From a virus: a stretch of 64,000 bases of DNA. The translations under genes and the position numbers were made by a program. Where the stretch lies: positions 52,290-116,289 of the IMG/VR virus record IMGVR_UViG_3300045988_175036; one strand, given 5' to 3'. Positions 218-52,301 of the stretch are shown here, piece by piece (position 1 is the stretch's first letter; the number at the start of each line of letters is the position of its first letter). The notes below the pieces were generated by a model. That model made no database searches, had not been told where the DNA came from, and saw nothing but the letters and a program-made list of their open reading frames with translations.

Positions 218-636
218 TATACCTCCACGATTTTATAGTCGCATCCATCAATAGAACGGATATAATTTAAAACATCTTTATATTCTGGTTTTGTAAACCA
301 GTTATTGAGAAGATAGGTATATGTAACTTTCTTAGCTTTTAAAGCCCTTCCAATTTTTTGATATTGGAGAAGTTTGAAAGCACAAGTTTGTAATTTTTCA
401 TCAACTGAGCCGGCCACTTGTTGATATTTCTTCTCATAAATTTTTAGTTCTCCATTTACAAAATAAGCCTCATCTGGCAATAGCTTCTTAGAAATTAGTT
501 TTCTCCAATCAATCTTTTCTTGAGACAAATACTTATATAGATTATGCTTAGATAAATCTATGCCTTCTTTTTGAGCTTGACAGATTTCTTCCCAAACTAA
601 ACCACTAGAAGTATCTCTAATCATATTCTTCATCAA
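217..636 (-). CDS. hypothetical protein (139 aa)
   Basis: ORF track; start overlaps the stop of the upstream deaminase gene (633-636); no recognised motif. Confidence 0.5.
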   Translation of the reverse strand: MMKNMIRDTSSGLVWEEICQAQKEGIDLSKHNLYKYLSQEKIDWRKLISKKLLPDEAYFVNGELKIYEKKYQQVAGSVDEKLQTCAFKLLQYQKIGRALKAKKVTYTYLLNNWFTKPEYKDVLNYIRSIDGCDYKIVEV

Positions 637-1052
637 ATAATTTTCTCCTTTACATAATCTCCACTTTCATTCAAATAATAAACTGTCTTTATTCCTAGGT
701 CTCGTATCAGTCGCGCGCACGCCGCGCAGGGTCTGCTACAGCCTCTTTCTCCATTTTTGTGTTCTCTATAAACATAGATATTGACTTTATCCCATTCAAT
801 ATCTTTCCCAATAAGAGGAGAAAGTGCAGCGACCTCTGCGTGTTCTCGCGCGATTGAATTCTCGTAGTCATCAAAATTTCGATAAATATTATAACGGTGC
901 TGAAGAGGACGAGTCTTCTGACTATTACAAGCAGAAGAAAGAATCCTGTTGCCACTGACAACAACCGCGCCGACCTTTGTCTGCTTGAAATCAGATAAAT
1001 AACTGACTTCACGCGCGATATTGAAAAAGCGTTCTTCTTTGTGCGTCATCAA
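633..1052 (-). CDS. deoxycytidylate (dCMP) deaminase
   Basis: Zinc-binding signature HAEVAAL ... PCAACARLI of the cytidine/dCMP deaminase family. Confidence 0.85.
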   Translation of the reverse strand: MMTHKEERFFNIAREVSYLSDFKQTKVGAVVVSGNRILSSACNSQKTRPLQHRYNIYRNFDDYENSIAREHAEVAALSPLIGKDIEWDKVNIYVYREHKNGERGCSRPCAACARLIRDLGIKTVYYLNESGDYVKEKII

Positions 1053-1080
1053 ACTAGTCCCCTTTACTCTTTATAAAAAT

Positions 1081-1109
1081 ATTATATCAAAAATTTTAGT
1101 TTTTTTCAA
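1081..1109 (-). promoter_or_regulatory. sigma-A type promoter, conserved cassette
   Basis: Minus strand TTGAAA (1109-1104), 17 nt, TGaTATAAT (-10 at 1086-1081), followed by ATTTTTATAAAGAG. Confidence 0.6.
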
Positions 1110-33550: not shown

Positions 33551-34448
33551 GTTGCTACGAAAATATGGTGCGCATCAAGATAAAATCCAAGAATTTGTTG
33601 GAAGATTTCCAAATGGTGTTGAAGCACTAGACTTTCTTGAAGAAATTGGCCCTGAAGCGATTGCTGGTAATTATAGTCCATGGCTTGAGGCATTATACTG
33701 GGGTTACCGAATGCTACCCTGGACCACCAAAGAAAAAGAGAAATACTGTGAAGTTTTGAATATTGATAGTTCTTCTAGCGTCTATGAAAGTTATGATGTA
33801 GAAGAAAGTGAAAAAGTTATTCATTCTGATCACATTTATTTGAGCGGAAACATTGATAACTGTAGTAATATTAGAAATAGTAATTACGTTGCTTCTAGTG
33901 CTACAGTTGAAGGAAGTGACGGTGTCCTAAAGTCAGAATATATTGTGAATAGTAGTCTAGTTGATACTGGAATGGACATTCAAAGTTCAAAAGAAATTTA
34001 TAAAGCATCACATGTGAAGAAAAGTCAGAAGTGCGCGCGAGTCGATAGTATTGAGAATTGCGTCGGAATTTTCAGTTCTTCTGGATGTGAAGAGGTCTAT
34101 TACTCTTCTTTTATGAAGAATTGTCATCATTGTCTTTTCTGTGATGATATTGAGGATGCTTCTTTTAGAATCTTCAACCAACCAGTGCCTGAGAAGGATT
34201 TCTTCGTAATTCTTTCGATGGTTGAGAGCTATTTTGATAACAAGCTTGAACCTTTGATTGAAACTACAGTAAATGACGAATTTTATTTTGGCCTTGATTG
34301 GCATGTTTCGACGCACTTTACAAAGATTTACAGAAGCCTGTCGCAGGAGGTTTTCAATCAACTTTATAGACTACCTGGTTATAATGACTGGCTGATGTAT
34401 CAGATTACATTGAATACTCTGAGTTTTCGAGATTTGAAAAATAGCTAA
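33534..34448 (+). CDS. hypothetical protein with a repetitive S/N/C-rich central region
   Basis: ORF track; AAGGAG 7 nt before ATG 33534. Confidence 0.5.
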   Translation: MYLTVELLRKYGAHQDKIQEFVGRFPNGVEALDFLEEIGPEAIAGNYSPWLEALYWGYRMLPWTTKEKEKYCEVLNIDSSSSVYESYDVEESEKVIHSDHIYLSGNIDNCSNIRNSNYVASSATVEGSDGVLKSEYIVNSSLVDTGMDIQSSKEIYKASHVKKSQKCARVDSIENCVGIFSSSGCEEVYYSSFMKNCHHCLFCDDIEDASFRIFNQPVPEKDFFVILSMVESYFDNKLEPLIETTVNDEFYFGLDWHVSTHFTKIYRSLSQEVFNQLYRLPGYNDWLMYQITLNTLSFRDLKNS

Positions 34449-34462
34449 ATTTCGAGTATAAT
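34434..34462 (+). promoter_or_regulatory. sigma-A type promoter, conserved cassette (drives the RNA island)
   Basis: TTGAAA, 17 nt, TATAAT, then ATTTATACAAAATGG. Confidence 0.65.
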
Positions 34463-34496
34463 ATTTATACAAAATGGTTGAGGAAAGGAAAAAGAA

Positions 34497-34631
34497 ATGA
34501 CTTATCATTGGAAGACAGAAGTAGCAATTCTTGAAAATCGCATCCATCTTCTTGAACAGCGTGGAGATAACGTGCCAATTGTCTCAAAGTTGAAGCGACG
34601 ACTAAGAAAGCTATTATCTAGCTCTTATTGA
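34497..34631 (+). CDS. small ORF (44 aa, basic C-terminus), not in the ORF track
   Basis: AGGAAAGGAAAAAGAA then ATG. Encodes MTYHWKTEVAILENRIHLLEQRGDNVPIVSKLKRRLRKLLSSSY. Confidence 0.35.
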   Translation: MTYHWKTEVAILENRIHLLEQRGDNVPIVSKLKRRLRKLLSSSY

Positions 34632-34957
34632 GCTATTTGGCGCACGACAGAAACTTACCGTGAATGTCTGAAGTGGCCTCAGTTGGGAAGGCTTACCAGC
34701 TTTATAAAAACCGAGCAATCAAGACAAAGTATTAGCTACACTTTGAGGAAGCAAAGAGGTGGGCGGGAGTCGGCTCTCCCGTAGCTAGAAACCGATTACA
34801 GGGTTAAGCGCAAGACGCTTAGGCCAAGCTATGATGTCATATTTCCGGGGCAATTTCGGTAGTATGACGGAGCTTTTGTCAAGGGTTAGGAGATTTCCAC
34901 AGATTGCCTAGGGGTCTACCTCGTAGGAGACTACCGAAAGAAAATCTCCATCTTTAT
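34632..34957 (+). ncRNA. ORF-free GC-enriched structured spacer A
   Basis: Hairpins GGGAG-tcgg-CTCCC and TAAGCG-caaga-CGCTTA. Long-range pair TCGGTAGT (34856) with ACTACCGA (34931). Downstream of the 34434 promoter. Confidence 0.4.
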
Positions 34958-35052
34958 CCTGCCTTAGCACAACGGTAGTGCAACCGGTTTATGCCCGGCA
35001 TACGGCTCCAGATTAGGGCGCGATCTCGGTTCGAATCCGAGGGGCAGGACCA
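34958..35052 (+). tRNA. atypical 95-nt tRNA-like gene; anticodon loop UUUAUGC (UAU, Ile-type) with a 25-nt extra arm and encoded CCA
   Basis: Acceptor CCTGCCT/GGGCAGG, D arm GCAC-AACGGTA-GTGC, anticodon stem CCGG/CCGG, T arm CTCGG-TTCGAAT-CCGAG. The extra region does not fit class I or class II rules. Confidence 0.5.
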
Positions 35053-35255
35053 AAGGTATCCAAACTACCTTAATCGTTTGGTGAGGACTCAAGTTACTAA
35101 AGTTAGGTCAGCTTGACATCCAACAGAGACGACCTACACAGGTGAGACAGGTGAGAATGACGGCTTAGTCCTTTCTTGAATAAACAGAACCTGACCCGTT
35201 TTGGCGCCAAGGGTGAACGCTGCTTGAAGGTAAAGAAAGGCAATAAATTTTATAT
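35053..35255 (+). ncRNA. ORF-free structured spacer B
   Basis: No ORF; GC-enriched; lies between two tRNA(-like) genes. Confidence 0.35.
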
Positions 35256-35332
35256 GGGAGCATAGCTCAGTTGGTTAGAGCGCATGACTGTTAATCATGA
35301 TGTCGAAGGTTCAAGTCCTTCTGTTCCCGCCA
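35256..35332 (+). tRNA. tRNA-Asn (GUU)
   Basis: GGGAGCA TA GCTC AGTTGGTTA GAGC G CATGA CTGTTAA TCATG ATGTC GAAGG TTCAAGT CCTTC TGTTCCC G CCA. Confidence 0.9.
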
Positions 35333-35617
35333 AATGATGGCGAGTAGTGCGAATAGAAAAGATAAGAACGAAATAGTACCTTTTATGGTGGATAAACCTA
35401 TTATTCACTTATTGAATCTATTGGAGTCACGCACGGCTCCGCTTGCTATCATTACCAACGGATAAAACTTGTTGTGAGCAAACTTACAAGTTACCTTTTT
35501 GACCTCACAAACAACTATGCAAGCATATCTTACGCGCAAACTAGATATGACTCCCTCTGGGAGAAAGGTGATTGCGCGGCCGGTTAGCGCTCCTGTCTAA
35601 GTTCAAAGCGCGTTATA
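35333..35617 (+). ncRNA. ORF-free structured spacer C
   Basis: No ORF; GC-enriched; lies between tRNA genes. Confidence 0.35.
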
Positions 35618-35684
35618 TCCCCTTTTAGTGTAATGGTTAGCACAGCAATTGAGGGCAAGAGTGGTTCGATCCCACAGAGGGGAG
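35618..35684 (+). tRNA. degenerate tRNA-like element lacking an anticodon arm (67 nt, no CCA)
   Basis: Acceptor TCCCCTT/GAGGGGA, D arm GTGT-AATGGTTA-GCAC, T arm GTGG-TTCGATC-CCAC. Only about 16 nt (containing CAATTG) sit where 23 are expected. Confidence 0.3.
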
Positions 35685-35764
35685 TCAAAGATAAAATTAT
35701 CTTTTCTACACGGAGAAACTATTGATTCCGAAAACTATCCAATACAAATTGAAAGGAAATTTTT

Positions 35765-36025
35765 ATGGAAAAGATTTTTGAACTCTGTAAAGAGCGTGAT
35801 ATCAGGTGTTATTTCAGTTATTGGAAGCTCGACGATTCTATTCATTTTGCTTTCACTAGAACATTTGCTGGCCAAGATTGTAAATTTATACAGGTCGTTC
35901 CGATCAAGGATATTAATAATAATTCTCATGTTATCGGACAGTACATTGCAGAACTTATTGAAGACAAGCTGTCGGATGAGAATTGTAGAAAAATGATTCT
36001 CGACAGAATTGAAAAGCTTCTTTGA
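35765..36025 (+). CDS. hypothetical protein (86 aa) inside the RNA island
   Basis: ORF track; AT-rich like the other coding DNA; AAAGGA RBS. Confidence 0.4.
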   Translation: MEKIFELCKERDIRCYFSYWKLDDSIHFAFTRTFAGQDCKFIQVVPIKDINNNSHVIGQYIAELIEDKLSDENCRKMILDRIEKLL

Positions 36026-36097
36026 AATCTATTTTTATAATAAGAAAAATAGGTACACTACTTCTTTTATGTTTCGTAGTAGCTGGATTTATAAATA

Positions 36098-36175
36098 TCC
36101 TCTATTGGTGTAATGGTAGCACACTTCCCGTCAAGGAAGAGGGGTCGGTTCGATTCGATATCCTGCATAGAGGAC
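36098..36175 (+). tRNA. degenerate tRNA-like element
   Basis: Perfect acceptor TCCTCTA/TAGAGGA and D arm GTG-TAATGGTAG-CAC. Anticodon stem CTTCC/GGAAG has a 6-nt loop CGTCAA. The T arm is disrupted (GTCGG-TTCGATT-CGATATCCTGCA). Confidence 0.3.
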
Positions 36176-36361
36176 GGCTTGACACAGCCGGAGTGTTATC
36201 TCTGGCATACGGATTAGCGTATGCAAAGCATTTGTCTTCGGATGGTAAAATGCGAGAGAAGTCATCCCCTTGAACTTCTCACTACATACATCCCCAGCGG
36301 TTGTTATGCTGAGACCGATGGCGCGACGGTCGTTTATAATATCGCGCCATTTGTCTAAAAT
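36176..36361 (+). ncRNA. ORF-free structured spacer D
   Basis: Hairpins GCATACG-gattag-CGTATGC (36205-36224) and ATGGCGCGA-N15-TCGCGCCAT (36318-36350). 36185-36217 resembles 34981-35016. Confidence 0.35.
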
Positions 36362-36397
36362 GCGGGTGTAGTATAATGGTTATTATGTCTGCCTTCC

Positions 36398-36861
36398 TTC
36401 TAAACTTAATGCGTTAGATATATATGGAGCAATTATCAACTCAATTTAAAGGCGATGTGACTGAACTTTTAGTTAGTGCATATTTACTAAAATTAGGTTA
36501 TGTAGTATCTAAACCTTTAACCCAAGATAGTAAATATGATTTAATTGTAGATATTAACCATAAGTTAATTCGTATTCAGGTTAAAACTGCAAGACTAAAT
36601 GATCGGACCATTGGCAAAAGTATTAAGTTTAATTGTAGAAGTACCACAAACAATGTAAGAGAATGCAAACAGCGATATTATTCGCCAGAAGATGTAGATT
36701 ATTTTGCAACATATTGGGATAATGTAGTATATTTAATCCCAGTTACTGAATGTAGTGCTGAGAAAATTTTATGGATAGATAAGCCTACATATAAAAACAG
36801 TTGTTTTGCAAATGATTATCTGGCAGAGGAGGTATTACAACGCATTTAAGCATTGGAAGGG
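36398..36861 (+). mobile_element. homing-endonuclease cassette / atypical tRNA intron
   Basis: The ORF fills 426 of 464 nt. The ends form a helix: 36405-36415 with 36839-36850, and 36393-36397 with 36855-36859. Confidence 0.6.
36424..36849 (+). CDS. PD-(D/E)XK homing endonuclease, I-Ssp6803I-like
   Basis: FKGDVTELLVSAYLLKLGYVVSKPLTQDSKYDLIVDINHKLIRIQVKTAR matches the intron-associated PD-(D/E)XK endonuclease family pattern. Confidence 0.7.
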   Translation: MEQLSTQFKGDVTELLVSAYLLKLGYVVSKPLTQDSKYDLIVDINHKLIRIQVKTARLNDRTIGKSIKFNCRSTTNNVRECKQRYYSPEDVDYFATYWDNVVYLIPVTECSAEKILWIDKPTYKNSCFANDYLAEEVLQRI

Positions 36862-36984
36862 AAGCAGAAGATGGGGCTTCGATTGCCCTCACTCGCTCCA
36901 CCGCCCCATGGGAAGTTTGCCTCCAATAAGTCTCATGACCACTACTAGATTGCACTAGTTGACTGAATAAAGGTGGTTTTATAT

Positions 36985-37061
36985 GCACTTGTAGCTCAGT
37001 TGGTAGTAGCAATTGCCTTTTAAGCAATGGGTCGGGCATTCGAGTTGCCCCAAGTGCACCA
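36985..37061 (+). tRNA. tRNA-Lys (UUU)
   Basis: GCACTTG TA GCTC AGTTGGTA GTAGC..., anticodon arm CAATTGC CTTTTAA GCAATGG, T arm GGGCA TTCGAGT TGCCC, then CAAGTGC A CCA. Confidence 0.9.
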
Positions 37062-37141
37062 CTTTATTTGGAATCAATAGCTTGTCCACCTTTGGGCGAC
37101 CCGTAATAGCCGGACATTTGAAAATTTCTTCTCGTAAATGT

Positions 37142-37170
37142 TTGAAATTTTTCTGATTTTTTGATATAAT
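37142..37170 (+). promoter_or_regulatory. sigma-A type promoter, conserved cassette
   Basis: TTGAAA, 17 nt, TGaTATAAT, then ATTTACAGAAAGTGAGGG. Confidence 0.65.
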
Positions 37171-37196
37171 ATTTACAGAAAGTGAGGGAAACGAAA

Positions 37197-37373
37197 ATGG
37201 AAACTGAAACTCCGTGGAAGCCCGAAGTAAAGAAAATGTCTCCCGAACAACTTGAGAAGTGGACGGCGCTCCGTAAAAAGTGTCAAGTCTTTCCTTCTCG
37301 AAAACCATATTCGCGCAAAATCAAACATAAAAATCGAGAAAAAGAAAAAGAAAAAGAAGAAAACGAAATTTGA
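37197..37373 (+). CDS. small, highly basic protein (58 aa)
   Basis: ORF track frame; ATG 37197 after GAGGGA. Encodes METETPWKPEVKKMSPEQLEKW...KEKEKEENEI. Confidence 0.35.
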   Translation: METETPWKPEVKKMSPEQLEKWTALRKKCQVFPSRKPYSRKIKHKNREKEKEKEENEI

Positions 37374-37398
37374 AAAACTTCTAAAATTTTGGTATAAT
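37370..37398 (+). promoter_or_regulatory. sigma-A type promoter, conserved cassette (drives 1.6 kb of non-coding RNA)
   Basis: TTGAAA, 17 nt, TGgTATAAT, then ATTTATACAAGATGAGAG. Confidence 0.65.
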
Positions 37399-37489
37399 AT
37401 TTATACAAGATGAGAGAGAGAGGAACTGGTCTTTTCCTTTCTACCAGTTCCTCTCTCAGAAAGTCCTAATGTGGCTTACTTGAAAACTA

Positions 37490-37563
37490 TCCGATGTAGT
37501 TCAACTGGTTAGAACACCGCATTGATAAAGCGGAGCTGTCGGTTTGAGATCCGGCCTTCGGGT
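37490..37563 (+). tRNA. tRNA-Ile (GAU)-like, irregular
   Basis: D arm GTTC-AACTGGTTA-GAAC and anticodon loop TTGATAA. There is an A.A pair at 31:39, an 8-nt T-loop (GTCGG-TTTGAGAT-CCGGC), a U.U mismatch in the acceptor stem, and no CCA. Confidence 0.45.
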
Positions 37564-37959
37564 AGTTGGTAAGCAGTCCCAAGCCTGCATAAACACAGAG
37601 GGAGACTAATAGCGGTATTACAGTGGCCAATGTAATATCCAAAATTTCGAGACAGGCAAGTCTTCAGGCAGTAGATGTCTGATAAAACAACGACGGCGAA
37701 GGAGTCGCGACCTTCGGAGGAGCCGAGATAAACCTACGGGGAACCGCCATCGGAGAAAAGGAATTTATTAGTCAAATCAGTTTCGTGGTTCTGGGACTCA
37801 AAACCACCTCGCGCAGTTCTTACGGCGCAATATAAATAGGATGGGCGCTATCTGACATGGCGTGACGTTCAGAAGTTTCGATGCGTGGGCTTACCTATAA
37901 AACTCATGCTGGGTCTTTGGAGCCTTTTACCTCCTGTGTGAAACAAAAGGCTCGTATAT
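37564..37959 (+). ncRNA. ORF-free structured spacer G (about 395 nt)
   Basis: Hairpins ATTACA-N8-TGTAAT, CGAAGG-N8-CCTTCG, GTGGTT-N11-AACCAC and GAGCCTTTT-N17-AAAAGGCTC (37918-37952). Confidence 0.4.
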
Positions 37960-38045
37960 GCAAGTGTGGTGGAAATGGCATACACATCTGATTCAAGCTC
38001 AGATGCCCACTGGGATTAAGGGTTCGACTCCCTTCACTTGTACCA
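37960..38045 (+). tRNA. tRNA-Leu (CAA), class II
   Basis: GCAAGTG ... TCTGA TTCAAGC TCAGA, 14-nt variable arm TGCCCACTGGGATT, T arm AAGGG TTCGACT CCCTT, then CACTTGT A CCA. Confidence 0.85.
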
Positions 38046-38966
38046 GAAATTCGTGTCCCGCTAAGCTCTATAATGATTGTGGCGAGGCTAAGGCGTTGGC
38101 AGATAAGGGGCAACCGCACGAATTAGAATATTGCGCAGGTCGTCTAACAGTAGGACGCCAGACTCATTATCTGGAGACAACGTGCAACTCGTTCGTGCGC
38201 AACCATTCGCTTTGGCGAAACTCTCGTAGAGGATGGATTTTACGGTTCAACTACCACCGGCTTCCGAGCCCGACCGCTATGGCTGACAACGAAGATATGT
38301 GGCTTTGTCATTTGCCGAGAGTATAATAAATAAAAACGAAAGCAAACCGTTTATTTGTTCCTTGAAAATAAAATATCTTAGAACTCGATGACAAACATTC
38401 TGTGACTAGGAATGTCGAGGCGTTTTGAAAAGGGCGGCAGACAACGAACAAGGATACTTGTGGATACTGACCGGTGCGCGTGACGTGAGTTGCGTGCCAG
38501 AGAGGATGGACTCCCAACCCTAAGAGGCGGCATCGAGATTAACGCGAGTAAAGGTAGGACGCGCGTCGCTGGCGTAATAGAGGCTTTCAAGATAATTGAG
38601 AGCTGAATCCTAATCTCCCTTAGTTGGTGACTGTGGGTAAATCATTTGATTAGGAAATAACCACAAGCCAGTTTGTTGTGAAGCGAAGAAATTCGTGTAT
38701 AAGACGTGTATGTGGCCTCTGAGTAGCCAAAGACAAGCACAATAATGATTATTGATAATAAAAATCAAGAACTTGCTGAATGGCTGGTGAAAGGTTCTGG
38801 TAATCAATCCAGAAGAGACTACGCGCACGAAGGTGCGGCTATGGGAAGTATGCGCGGGACGCTGCGTATGCTCAGCCCCATGGTGCTCTTGACTGAATAT
38901 ACTTGAAGTTAGTTTTCGGTAGGTTGAAGAACCCATAGATATTTTATTTTCAGGGAACAAATCCCT
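38046..38966 (+). ncRNA. large ORF-free structured region H (about 920 nt), candidate giant ncRNA(s)
   Basis: GC-enriched; only short overlapping track ORFs on both strands. Long-range pair 38048-38055 with 38117-38124. GAAATTCGTGT is repeated at 38046 and 38688. Ends at the 38967 terminator. Confidence 0.45.
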
Positions 38967-38994
38967 TTTGACGGAAAGGAACGTCAAAATTTTG
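38967..38994 (+). terminator. intrinsic terminator closing the RNA island
   Basis: TTTGACG-gaaaggaa-CGTCAAA followed by ATTTT. Confidence 0.5.
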
Positions 38995-39016
38995 AAATGA
39001 TAGGAGAGGAACTATT

Positions 39017-39307
39017 ATGGCAAGATTTTATAGCGATATTACAAACAAGCTCTACGATAGCATGGATGACCTTGAAGAGGCTGAAAAGAAGATTATCGCA
39101 AAACAAGAAGAGAAAAGAGTGGCAGAACAGAAGCGTGCAGACGAGCGCAAAGTTCGCGCACAGGAAATTGATGAACTGCAAAAGACTTATGTAGAGGCAC
39201 GAAAGGCGTATACAGAAGCTCTTGAGAAATTCTGTAATGATTACGGAACTTTTCACACCTCCATTTCTTCTGATAATCTTTTCGATTTTCTTTGGAGTTG
39301 GATGTAA
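39017..39307 (+). CDS. coiled-coil protein (96 aa)
   Basis: ORF track; AGGAGAGG RBS; E/K-rich helix. Confidence 0.55.
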   Translation: MARFYSDITNKLYDSMDDLEEAEKKIIAKQEEKRVAEQKRADERKVRAQEIDELQKTYVEARKAYTEALEKFCNDYGTFHTSISSDNLFDFLWSWM

Positions 39308-39644: not shown

Positions 39645-40283
39645 ATGAAGAAAAATGAAGATATCGGACTACTACCGCTAGTCCAAATTCCAGAAAGCGC
39701 GAATTATTCACTTCCCGACGATAATCTCCTGTCGTTCTACAATGATTTGGAAGAACGATTACTTTGGGTAACAGATGGAATTGATAGCTGTTCCTTGAAT
39801 ATTATTCATTATATTTTGAAGTGGAATCGTGAAGATAAGGGGATTGAGCTTTCCGCGCGAAAGCCTATTCGTCTTCTCATTTTTAGCCCCGGTGGAGAGC
39901 TTGATGTTTTTACTGCCATCGGCAATATTATTCGCCTTTCAAAAACTCCTGTTATTGGTATCAATATTTCGTGCGCTTATAGTGCCGCGGCGATGATACT
40001 TTTAATGTGTCATAAGAGATATGCTTTGAGCAGTGATGTTTCTGTTCTTTTCCATCAAGGAAGTTGTTCCGGCATTCAGGGAACTTATGATCAGATTGCT
40101 AATTTTATGAAAGAATATGATGAGCAAGTTTCTCGTCTTTCTCAGGTTATTCTCGATAGAACTTCATTTACAAAAGAAGAAGTAGATGAAAAGATGAAGA
40201 GCGATTGGTATGTATCCGCGCGCGAAGGCGTTGAACGCGGCGTATATGATGGTATTATTTCTTCTATCGATGAATTGATTTGA
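39645..40283 (+). CDS. ClpP-like (S14) serine protease
   Basis: IFSPGGELDVFTAIGNII ... CAYSAAAMILL ... LFHQGS (Ser/His of the ClpP family). Confidence 0.8.
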   Translation: MKKNEDIGLLPLVQIPESANYSLPDDNLLSFYNDLEERLLWVTDGIDSCSLNIIHYILKWNREDKGIELSARKPIRLLIFSPGGELDVFTAIGNIIRLSKTPVIGINISCAYSAAAMILLMCHKRYALSSDVSVLFHQGSCSGIQGTYDQIANFMKEYDEQVSRLSQVILDRTSFTKEEVDEKMKSDWYVSAREGVERGVYDGIISSIDELI

Positions 40284-52043: not shown

Positions 52044-52301
52044 ATGAGTATCTTCAAGAAAATTTCTCAAAAATTGGAGTATGCGAAGATGAAGAATGCA
52101 ACAATTACCCCGAAGGGAATTTGCTTCCGTGAGTATTGTCAAAAAATCCGTGACCATAAATGGACACCTGCCGATACTATTGAGGCATATGAAGAGGAGA
52201 TTAGCATCGTGCGCGACCTCCTTGAACAGGGGAAATATGTAATTTGTCGAGAGGACGTGGCGGATTATCTGTTCCAGCTGCTTTTGGAAGTAAAGGAGTA
52301 A
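52044..52301 (+). CDS. hypothetical protein (85 aa)
   Basis: ORF track; GGAGG RBS. Confidence 0.55.
   Translation: MSIFKKISQKLEYAKMKNATITPKGICFREYCQKIRDHKWTPADTIEAYEEEISIVRDLLEQGKYVICREDVADYLFQLLLEVKE

Follow-up and report, generated by a model that had tools for sequence, protein, structure and literature searches.

The window analysed here, 64,000 nucleotides (nt) of viral DNA (IMG/VR record IMGVR_UViG_3300045988_175036, positions 52,290 to 116,289), contains a block of about 920 nt (38046–38966) between a tRNA-Leu(CAA) gene and the next credible coding sequence, with a G+C content of 45.8% compared with 38.7% for the window. As a preliminary description of this DNA had stated, the open reading frame (ORF) list of the block holds nothing but overlapping ORFs on both strands. 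The features that we assign to the block and to its immediate surroundings are collected in Table 1. We consider it very likely that a phage operon combining tRNAs with non-coding RNAs has its 3' end in this block, and that its last gene encodes a ROOL RNA.

Table 1. Features in and around the block (positions in the window; aa, amino acids).
Feature	Position	Strand	Basis or remark
Phage promoter TTGAAA-N17-TATAAT with TG extension	37370–37398	+	11 of 12 consensus matches
Copies of the promoter consensus	32831, 34434, 37142, 37370, 51988, 53186, 54852, 60696	+	
Copies of the promoter consensus	1109, 63905	-	
tRNA-Leu(CAA), CCA encoded; 5' boundary of the block	37960–38045	+	ARAGORN; Rfam tRNA, 50.8 bits
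Module A, 87-nt spacer	38046–38132	+	Closing stem AATTCGTG (38048–38055) / CACGAATT (38117–38124)
tRNA, anticodon CAU (elongator Met or Ile2 type), 69 nt	38133–38201	+	Rfam tRNA
Hairpin UUCGC-UUUG-GCGAA, directly 3' of tRNA(CAU)	38206–38219	+	Folding
Module C, conserved structured element	38220–38322	+	Two-clade comparison, compensatory helix changes
AT-rich tail of module C	38323–38359	+	Conserved AACGAAAGCAAACCG (38335–38349) and a weak hairpin
ROOL RNA, full length, 594 nt	38360–38953	+	RF03087
Tandem hairpins GGGA-ACAAA-UCCC (38953–38965) and UUUUGACG-GAAAGGAA-CGUCAAAA (38966–38989), then UUUU	38953–38993	+	
Next credible coding sequence	start 39017		Preceded by ribosome-binding site AGGAGAGGAA
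Candidate ORF, 125 aa	38610–38987	-	
Candidate ORF, 53 aa	38745–38906	+	
Candidate ORF, 122 aa	37958–38326	+	

When the whole window was scanned against Rfam 15 at gathering thresholds, the ROOL model (RF03087) was matched over its full length (model positions 1–574 of 574) and scored 285.9 bits, the gathering score being 99.1 (E = 1.6e-64); a search with permissive filters gave the same result. The published ROOL consensus includes three pseudoknots, while the model output for this match gives nested pairs only. Within the match, the closing helix P1 is a perfect helix of 15 base pairs (bp) formed by GAAAAUAAAAUAUCU (38364–38378) and AGAUAUUUUAUUUUC (38937–38951). The family blocks GGAUAC, AAUAGA, UAUAAG, AGUAGCC, CUGAAUG, GUGAAAG, GUAAUCAAUCC, GCUCAG and CGAAG are found in the window copy, which also has every one of the motifs that are invariant or nearly so in the ROOL alignment described below (GGAUA, AAUAG, UAUAAG, AGUAGC, CUCAG and CGAAG). 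CUGAAUG, GUGAAA and GUAAnCAAUCC are likewise present, but as the comparison set was collected with these very motifs, they are no independent support. In the model alignment, a variable AT-rich linker (~38732–38775) falls on the large unpaired loop; its length and sequence differ even between close relatives. Judged by its sequence, the 3' two-thirds of the block is a complete, standard ROOL RNA.

ROOL RNAs average 581 nt and are found near tRNAs and in prophages (PMC5737381). The window copy, at 594 nt, resembles this family in its end-to-end model match, long closing helix, conserved blocks and variable linker, and in its location in a phage with tRNA neighbours on the same strand. The differences are minor: the hairpin at 38583–38602 is longer in the clade of the window than in most ROOLs, the window copy ends its array with no tRNA downstream, and it is preceded by an unassigned conserved element, our module C; none of these touches the family-defining features. 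GOLLD, the other large ornate RNA of phage and prophage tRNA arrays, shares with ROOL the assembly into RNA-only cages and the lack of a known function (PMC12286853), whereas its sequence and fold are unrelated to those of ROOL and it is longer, many members exceeding 800 nt. Neither the scan of the window at the gathering threshold nor a search of 34400–39100 at E ≤ 5 gave a GOLLD match.

Relatives of the window were fetched with its ClpP-like protein (encoded at 39645–40283), which gave 10 close IMG/VR loci on contigs of ~90–121 kb, designated here, like the other loci compared, by L numbers; one further related locus is a 9-kb fragment. All 10 close loci carry a full-length ROOL at the same place (272–285 bits), its position upstream of the ClpP-like gene being fixed throughout the clade, and identity to the window copy among the relatives is 87–99% for ROOL compared with 45–91% for the 315 nt upstream. 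Between the window and L005, the most distant member of the clade, the paired positions show seven double-compensatory and nine wobble-preserving changes, together with three changes from mismatch to pair and two breaks. A search with the conserved ROOL pattern fetched 38 viral loci. Twenty-eight of these are not close relatives and all 28 carry ROOL, 27 in full length at 276–350 bits and one cut by the end of its contig. For a covariation test, the Rfam-derived structure of the window copy was projected on an alignment of 37 phage ROOLs that MAFFT had built from sequence alone, with the caveat that the projected structure came from the window row. In this alignment 72.9% of the cells formed standard pairs, compared with 39–49% when partners were slid by one to three columns; double changes occurred in 123 of 156 pairs; the covariation score was 0.407, and no slid control exceeded 0.183; and none of 500 shuffles reached the observed values. 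These comparisons show that the ROOL is selected for its base pairing, whereas the flank on its 5' side gets reshuffled.

These numbers bear on two other ways of reading the block. Next to the 276–350 bits of 28 other phage ROOLs, the 286 bits of the window copy rank low, and 26 of its 156 model pairs are non-canonical in the covariance-model alignment, as might be expected if the tRNA array were carrying along a non-functional relic in decay. However, the model is covered in full, several mismatches come from a shifted register in P1, in reality a perfect 15-bp helix, 16 changes relative to L005 are double-compensatory or wobble-preserving against the two breaks, and ROOL is conserved far above its flank; we therefore regard decay as highly improbable. 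Still more remote, to the point of having practically no weight for us, is the notion that the block codes for small proteins. The 125-, 53- and 122-aa ORFs that might encode them do exist, but frameshifts or early stops cut the first in nine of 10 relatives and the second in seven of 10, and in these two ORFs, which lie inside ROOL, substitutions are spread evenly over the codon positions with no third-position bias. Because both ROOL-internal ORFs are interrupted in most relatives and lack such bias, we exclude coding there; the 122-aa ORF spans two tRNA genes, and the conservation is accounted for by the ROOL model and the covariation. The preliminary description had seen in the block a non-coding structured RNA with no credible coding sequence, and the covariance-model match, the covariation and the broken ORFs all bear this out. 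It had also named missing conservation and covariation as grounds for giving the idea up; both turned out to be strong, so the idea stands.

Upstream of ROOL the picture is different. Alignment with the relatives indicates that the 5' 315 nt is a mosaic of five pieces rather than one large RNA, and that its modules are swapped or missing in sister phages. The preliminary description had suggested that an AT-rich hairpin splits the block into two RNAs of about 320 and 600 nt. A boundary is indeed found near 38360 and the hairpin marks the start of ROOL within ~10 nt, although its fold is weak (near 38325–38358, -4.7 kcal/mol, z -1.2) and did not score as terminator-like. The longer part proved to be ROOL, an assignment that goes beyond likeness in size, and the shorter part dissolves into the mosaic. 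Would it be possible that all 920 nt form one giant mature non-coding RNA, of which the 5' 315 nt is an extra ROOL domain? The parts lie on the same strand and are separated by neither a strong terminator nor a consensus promoter, and for this reason a common precursor is likely. As a mature species, however, such an RNA seems very unlikely: its 5' part would include a tRNA, sister phages with 87–99% identical ROOL lose or replace modules A and C, another clade has module C without ROOL, and the P1 helix of ROOL itself closes the RNA at 38364/38951.

Module A, the first piece, is confined to L001, L002, L013 and L053, at 98–100% identity. Its site holds unrelated sequence in L005, L006, L008 and L009 and, judged by eye, something resembling the end of a coding sequence in L003, L004 and L007. 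Its minimum free energy is no better than that of shuffles (z -0.88), no Rfam match was obtained at E ≤ 10, and no relatives were found beyond the near-identical copies; these fold, Rfam and relative searches gave no evidence of function. The closing stem of module A is the 8-bp pair, and GAAATTCGTGT (38046–38056 and 38688–38698) the repeated 11-mer, to which the preliminary description had drawn attention. Both are where it placed them, but neither stands out when the block is shuffled with its dinucleotides kept: 8% of the shuffles contain an exact direct repeat of 11 nt, and 5% reach the block's count of four 8-bp inverted repeats within 100 nt, for which the expectation is 1.06. One of these four is a ROOL stem, and the second copy of the 11-mer falls in a conserved ROOL hairpin with a GAAA tetraloop.

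The tRNA(CAU), with 43.7 bits against a gathering score of 29, does not encode CCA. It was missed by the preliminary description and also by ARAGORN in the window, while ARAGORN calls its homologues in L001, L002, L005, L007, L009 and L013 as tRNA-Met(cat). Two variants of this gene differ in the anticodon stem (CCAGA/UCUGG and GAAGG/CCUUC), and the T stem covaries too. In the window copy the T-loop is UGCAACU, with a G at position 55, which is atypical compared with the canonical U54 U55 C56; the L009 copy, which ARAGORN calls, has UUCAACU. The window tRNA may be impaired. The pairing of the hairpin that follows is kept by changed sequences, UUUGC/GCAAA in L068 and AUAUCGC/GCGAUAU or CUUUG/CAAAG in a second, distant clade.

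This second clade, formed by the distant phages L011/L054, L055, L056 and L073, carries a homologue of module C that is 72% identical. There, too, module C follows a tRNA and a hairpin, and ROOL does not lie downstream; the ClpP-like protein of the second clade, known for L011, is 42% identical to that of the window. Conversely, module C is absent from four sister phages that keep ROOL. The helix P1 of module C, ACUCUCG (38220–38226) with CGAGAGU (38316–38322), reads AGAGUGC/GCACUCU in the second clade, five of its seven pairs being changed on both sides, and P2, CCAC (38254–38257) with GUGG (38299–38302), reads CUAC/GUAG or CUCC/GGAG. The strands AGGAUGGAUUUUACGGUUCAACUA (38230–38253) and GUCAUUU are conserved, the 24-nt strand AGGAUGGAUUUUnCGGUUnAACUA being almost invariant. 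The helices were parsed by anchors, since a one-column offset between the clades in the MAFFT alignment hid the outer helix from RNAalifold. In the tail, the sequence is conserved in both clades, and the second does not keep the hairpin stem.

No Rfam match was found for module C, a search of the collected loci with its nhmmer profile gave no additional copies, and a pattern scan across metagenomes recovered these two clades and otherwise only a small number of weak, partial matches to the profile, most of them chance hits of the pattern. Because the scan yielded only two clades, the power to detect covariation is low, and with only two deep lineages the covariation is suggestive, not conclusive. 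We considered module C also as a peptide gene (MDFTVQL...) and rejected this: two differences in the conserved stretch, and the base changes in the only short ORF that the copies share, hit first codon positions, and an AGG directly abuts the ATG. Tentatively, and with more doubt than confidence, we suggest that module C, taken together with the hairpin before it and the AACGAAAGCAAACCG tail, might be an undescribed class of structured RNA found directly 3' of a tRNA in arrays of gut and rumen Bacillota phages, perhaps serving as a processing element or one that defines the 5' end of the following RNA. If so, the following RNA would be ROOL here and a different conserved RNA in the clade of L011, L055 and L056. 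As a separate observation, a ~110-nt conserved segment (GGAGGAUUGGUAAUUAUGAAAGUAGU...GAGGAUACGCCAAUUGGCUAAUCCUC...GUUGUAAAACUGCC) lies after module C in the second clade (L011 7270–7400 and its equivalents in L055, L056 and L073), which could be a structured RNA or a 15-codon ORF.

How this region might be expressed can be considered from its promoters. A strong sigma-70-type consensus, ATTTGAAA-N14-TGrTATAATATTTATA, occurs in ~10 copies in the window; going upstream from ROOL, the first to be met is that at 37370, with none of that consensus between the two. The 37370 copy is followed by a very stable 15-bp hairpin (37414–37457, -27.4 kcal/mol, z -3.6). At the other end, the tandem hairpins (total -14.2 kcal/mol, z -2.2) probably form a transcription end, though a weak one. 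In L002 and L005 the second hairpin has changed in ways that preserve its pairing; it fails the T-run rule on the plus strand, and the consensus scan lists the site for the minus strand only. The intrinsic terminator that the preliminary description had placed at the end of the block is therefore plausible, but weak. From these elements we would expect a primary transcript of ~1.6 kb starting at the 37370 promoter and containing, in this order, the strong 5' hairpin, tRNA-Ile(GAU), a twister-like motif, ~320 nt of unassigned conserved RNA, tRNA-Leu(CAA), module A, tRNA(CAU), the small hairpin, module C and ROOL, with at least partial transcription stop at the 3' hairpins. The precursor would then be cut by tRNA-processing enzymes. 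RNase Z is inhibited by a 3' CCA. Since tRNA-Leu encodes its CCA, release by RNase Z at that tRNA, as the preliminary description had envisaged, is unlikely, and processing is more plausible at tRNA(CAU), which lacks the CCA; a cut 3' of that tRNA would free a segment that carries module C and ROOL. Going by its homology to ROOLs of solved structure, the ~590-nt RNA would then fold with the 15-bp P1 joining both of its ends and self-assemble, as a hexamer or an octamer, into a hollow cage of dihedral symmetry that has the linker inside.

This expectation draws on published cage structures. A ROOL cage was found to be a hollow D4 octamer of 280 Å with a disordered internal linker and no known function (PMC12286853), and whether a ROOL forms hexamers or octamers depends on its sequence (PMC12990946). 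A published hypothesis is that the cage encapsulates or sequesters tRNAs, ribosomal parts or other cargo during infection; we found no report of a ROOL function in the literature that we searched, including work from 2025 onwards.

Several considerations weigh against the operon reading or some part of it. The terminator has only three G-C pairs and four U's and lies ~25 nt before the ribosome-binding site of the next gene, and because it is weak and so close to that site, read-through is likely. We infer, rather than observe, the transcript ends, the processing sites and the co-transcription. Oligomer formation by the window ROOL is a prediction, and the hairpin at 38583–38602 is longer in its clade than in most ROOLs; the mechanism proposed here ends at assembly. 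Lastly, a TATAAT box at 38322–38327 could serve as a separate promoter for ROOL, which would then be a transcription unit of its own and not be processed from a tRNA precursor. The box and an A-rich sequence lie ~35 nt upstream of ROOL and are conserved in most copies of module C. On the other hand, it has no -35 hexamer at 16–18 nt and no TG extension, unlike the ~10 promoters of the window, it reads TCTAAT in L055, ROOL is kept in the four sister phages without module C, and in other phages tRNAs directly abut ROOL. On these grounds we think a separate promoter unlikely, and the operon that ends in ROOL remains our preferred reading.

The wider context agrees with a phage tRNA array. The proteins of the window are phage-like (a DnaE-like polymerase, topoisomerase II subunits, RecJ, DnaB, ClpP and PhoH), the polymerase being 38% identical to YorL of SPbeta-like Bacillus phages, and the phages of this clade probably infect Bacillota. 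Contigs with the same module C and the adjoining start of ROOL come from human-gut metagenomes, and ROOLs with the same motif occur in metagenome-assembled genomes (MAGs) of gut Bacillota, namely Erysipelotrichaceae, Faecalibacillus, Anaerovoracaceae, Acutalibacteraceae and Hominifimenecus; in the scan of the genome collection no MAG ROOL was close enough to that of the window for a host to be assigned. A blastn search of the 'distant' type with 37900–39050 against GenBank phages matched in the tRNA-Leu part only, the ROOL region being found in no isolate phage at that sensitivity. On one strand of the window, 34826–38953 holds a drum RNA, six tRNAs and, as the last gene, ROOL. Across the 37 ROOL loci, all tRNAs called by ARAGORN are on the ROOL strand; each end of ROOL is abutted by a tRNA in L034, L036 and L046, and tRNAs are 19–20 nt away in L023 and L032. 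At other ROOL loci there are matches to tmRNA and skipping-rope. ROOL and GOLLD were described as lying near tRNAs, often in prophages, with co-transcription as a possibility (PMC5737381). The array of the window has the same-strand layout of phage tRNA arrays with small RNAs (drum, skipping-rope, tmRNA-like), except that modules A and C are without a described counterpart.

A number of further observations were made in and around such arrays. The drum RNA (RF02958, 56.9 bits against 43) lies in 34826–35052 together with a 95-nt tRNA-Ile(UAU) that has a 22-nt extra arm, and the arrangement is the same in eight relatives. According to Weinberg et al. (2017, PMC5737381), drum has a terminator behind it; in contrast, the drum of the window ends 4 nt before tRNA-Ile(UAU) and appears to be co-transcribed with the tRNAs from a promoter at 34434–34462. 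The tRNA-Gly(UCC) gene (36362–36901) is split in the anticodon loop by a ~465-nt insertion (36398–36862), almost all of which is a 141-aa ORF for a PD-(D/E)XK endonuclease (36424–36849; Pfam PF11645, 1.3e-23). The same tRNA is uninterrupted in L001, L002 and L009, and a search for group I introns gave no match at E ≤ 5; the insertion looks like a presence-absence polymorphism of a homing endonuclease or intron. Between two promoters of the array lies a very basic 58-aa ORF (37198–37373, METETPWKPEV...KEKEKEENEI) with a ribosome-binding site, conserved at the DNA level in relatives. Directly 3' of tRNA-Ile(GAU), the twister-like motif (37566–37642) has the core GCAGUCCCAAGCCUGCAUAAA...GAGGG and stays below the Rfam thresholds, with 22.8 bits against 39.9 for type P3 (E = 0.018 in 281 nt) and 27.4 against 67.2 for type P1, the latter over the 3' half only. 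The ~320 nt that separate it from tRNA-Leu (37643–37959) have a G+C content of ~47–50%, no credible ORF and no Rfam match, and the gap that includes them (37565–37959) is 88–98% conserved in most relatives; we regard this segment as a candidate for another structured RNA. In L043, a tRNA-like gene (661–734, minus strand) lies inside the variable linker of a ROOL (495–1088, minus strand), scored as tRNA by Rfam with 51 bits and assigned a 4-base anticodon, gtag, by ARAGORN. In two structure papers embedded tRNAs are mentioned for GOLLD only (PMC12286853, PMC12990946).

What the block contains is, for the most part, an already-known kind of RNA, because a routine Rfam scan identifies it as a standard full-length ROOL. 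The ROOL of the block is an ordinary member of its family, and module C is the only element of the block that may be new. ROOL, a large RNA of phages and bacteria, is among the few natural RNAs known to build cages without protein, and the locus of the window leaves that picture unchanged. It does add a well-defined case from a gut phage, in which ROOL is terminal in a putative promoter-to-hairpin unit with tRNAs, in which structural selection on ROOL is clear while its neighbours get swapped, and which comes with about ten natural sequence variants. The surrounding array has more small unassigned elements, such as module C, the twister-like motif and the tRNA-Gly split by an endonuclease gene. 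The compact operon would be a convenient subject for studies asking if tRNA-processing enzymes release ROOL and if ROOL has an effect on the use of phage tRNAs.

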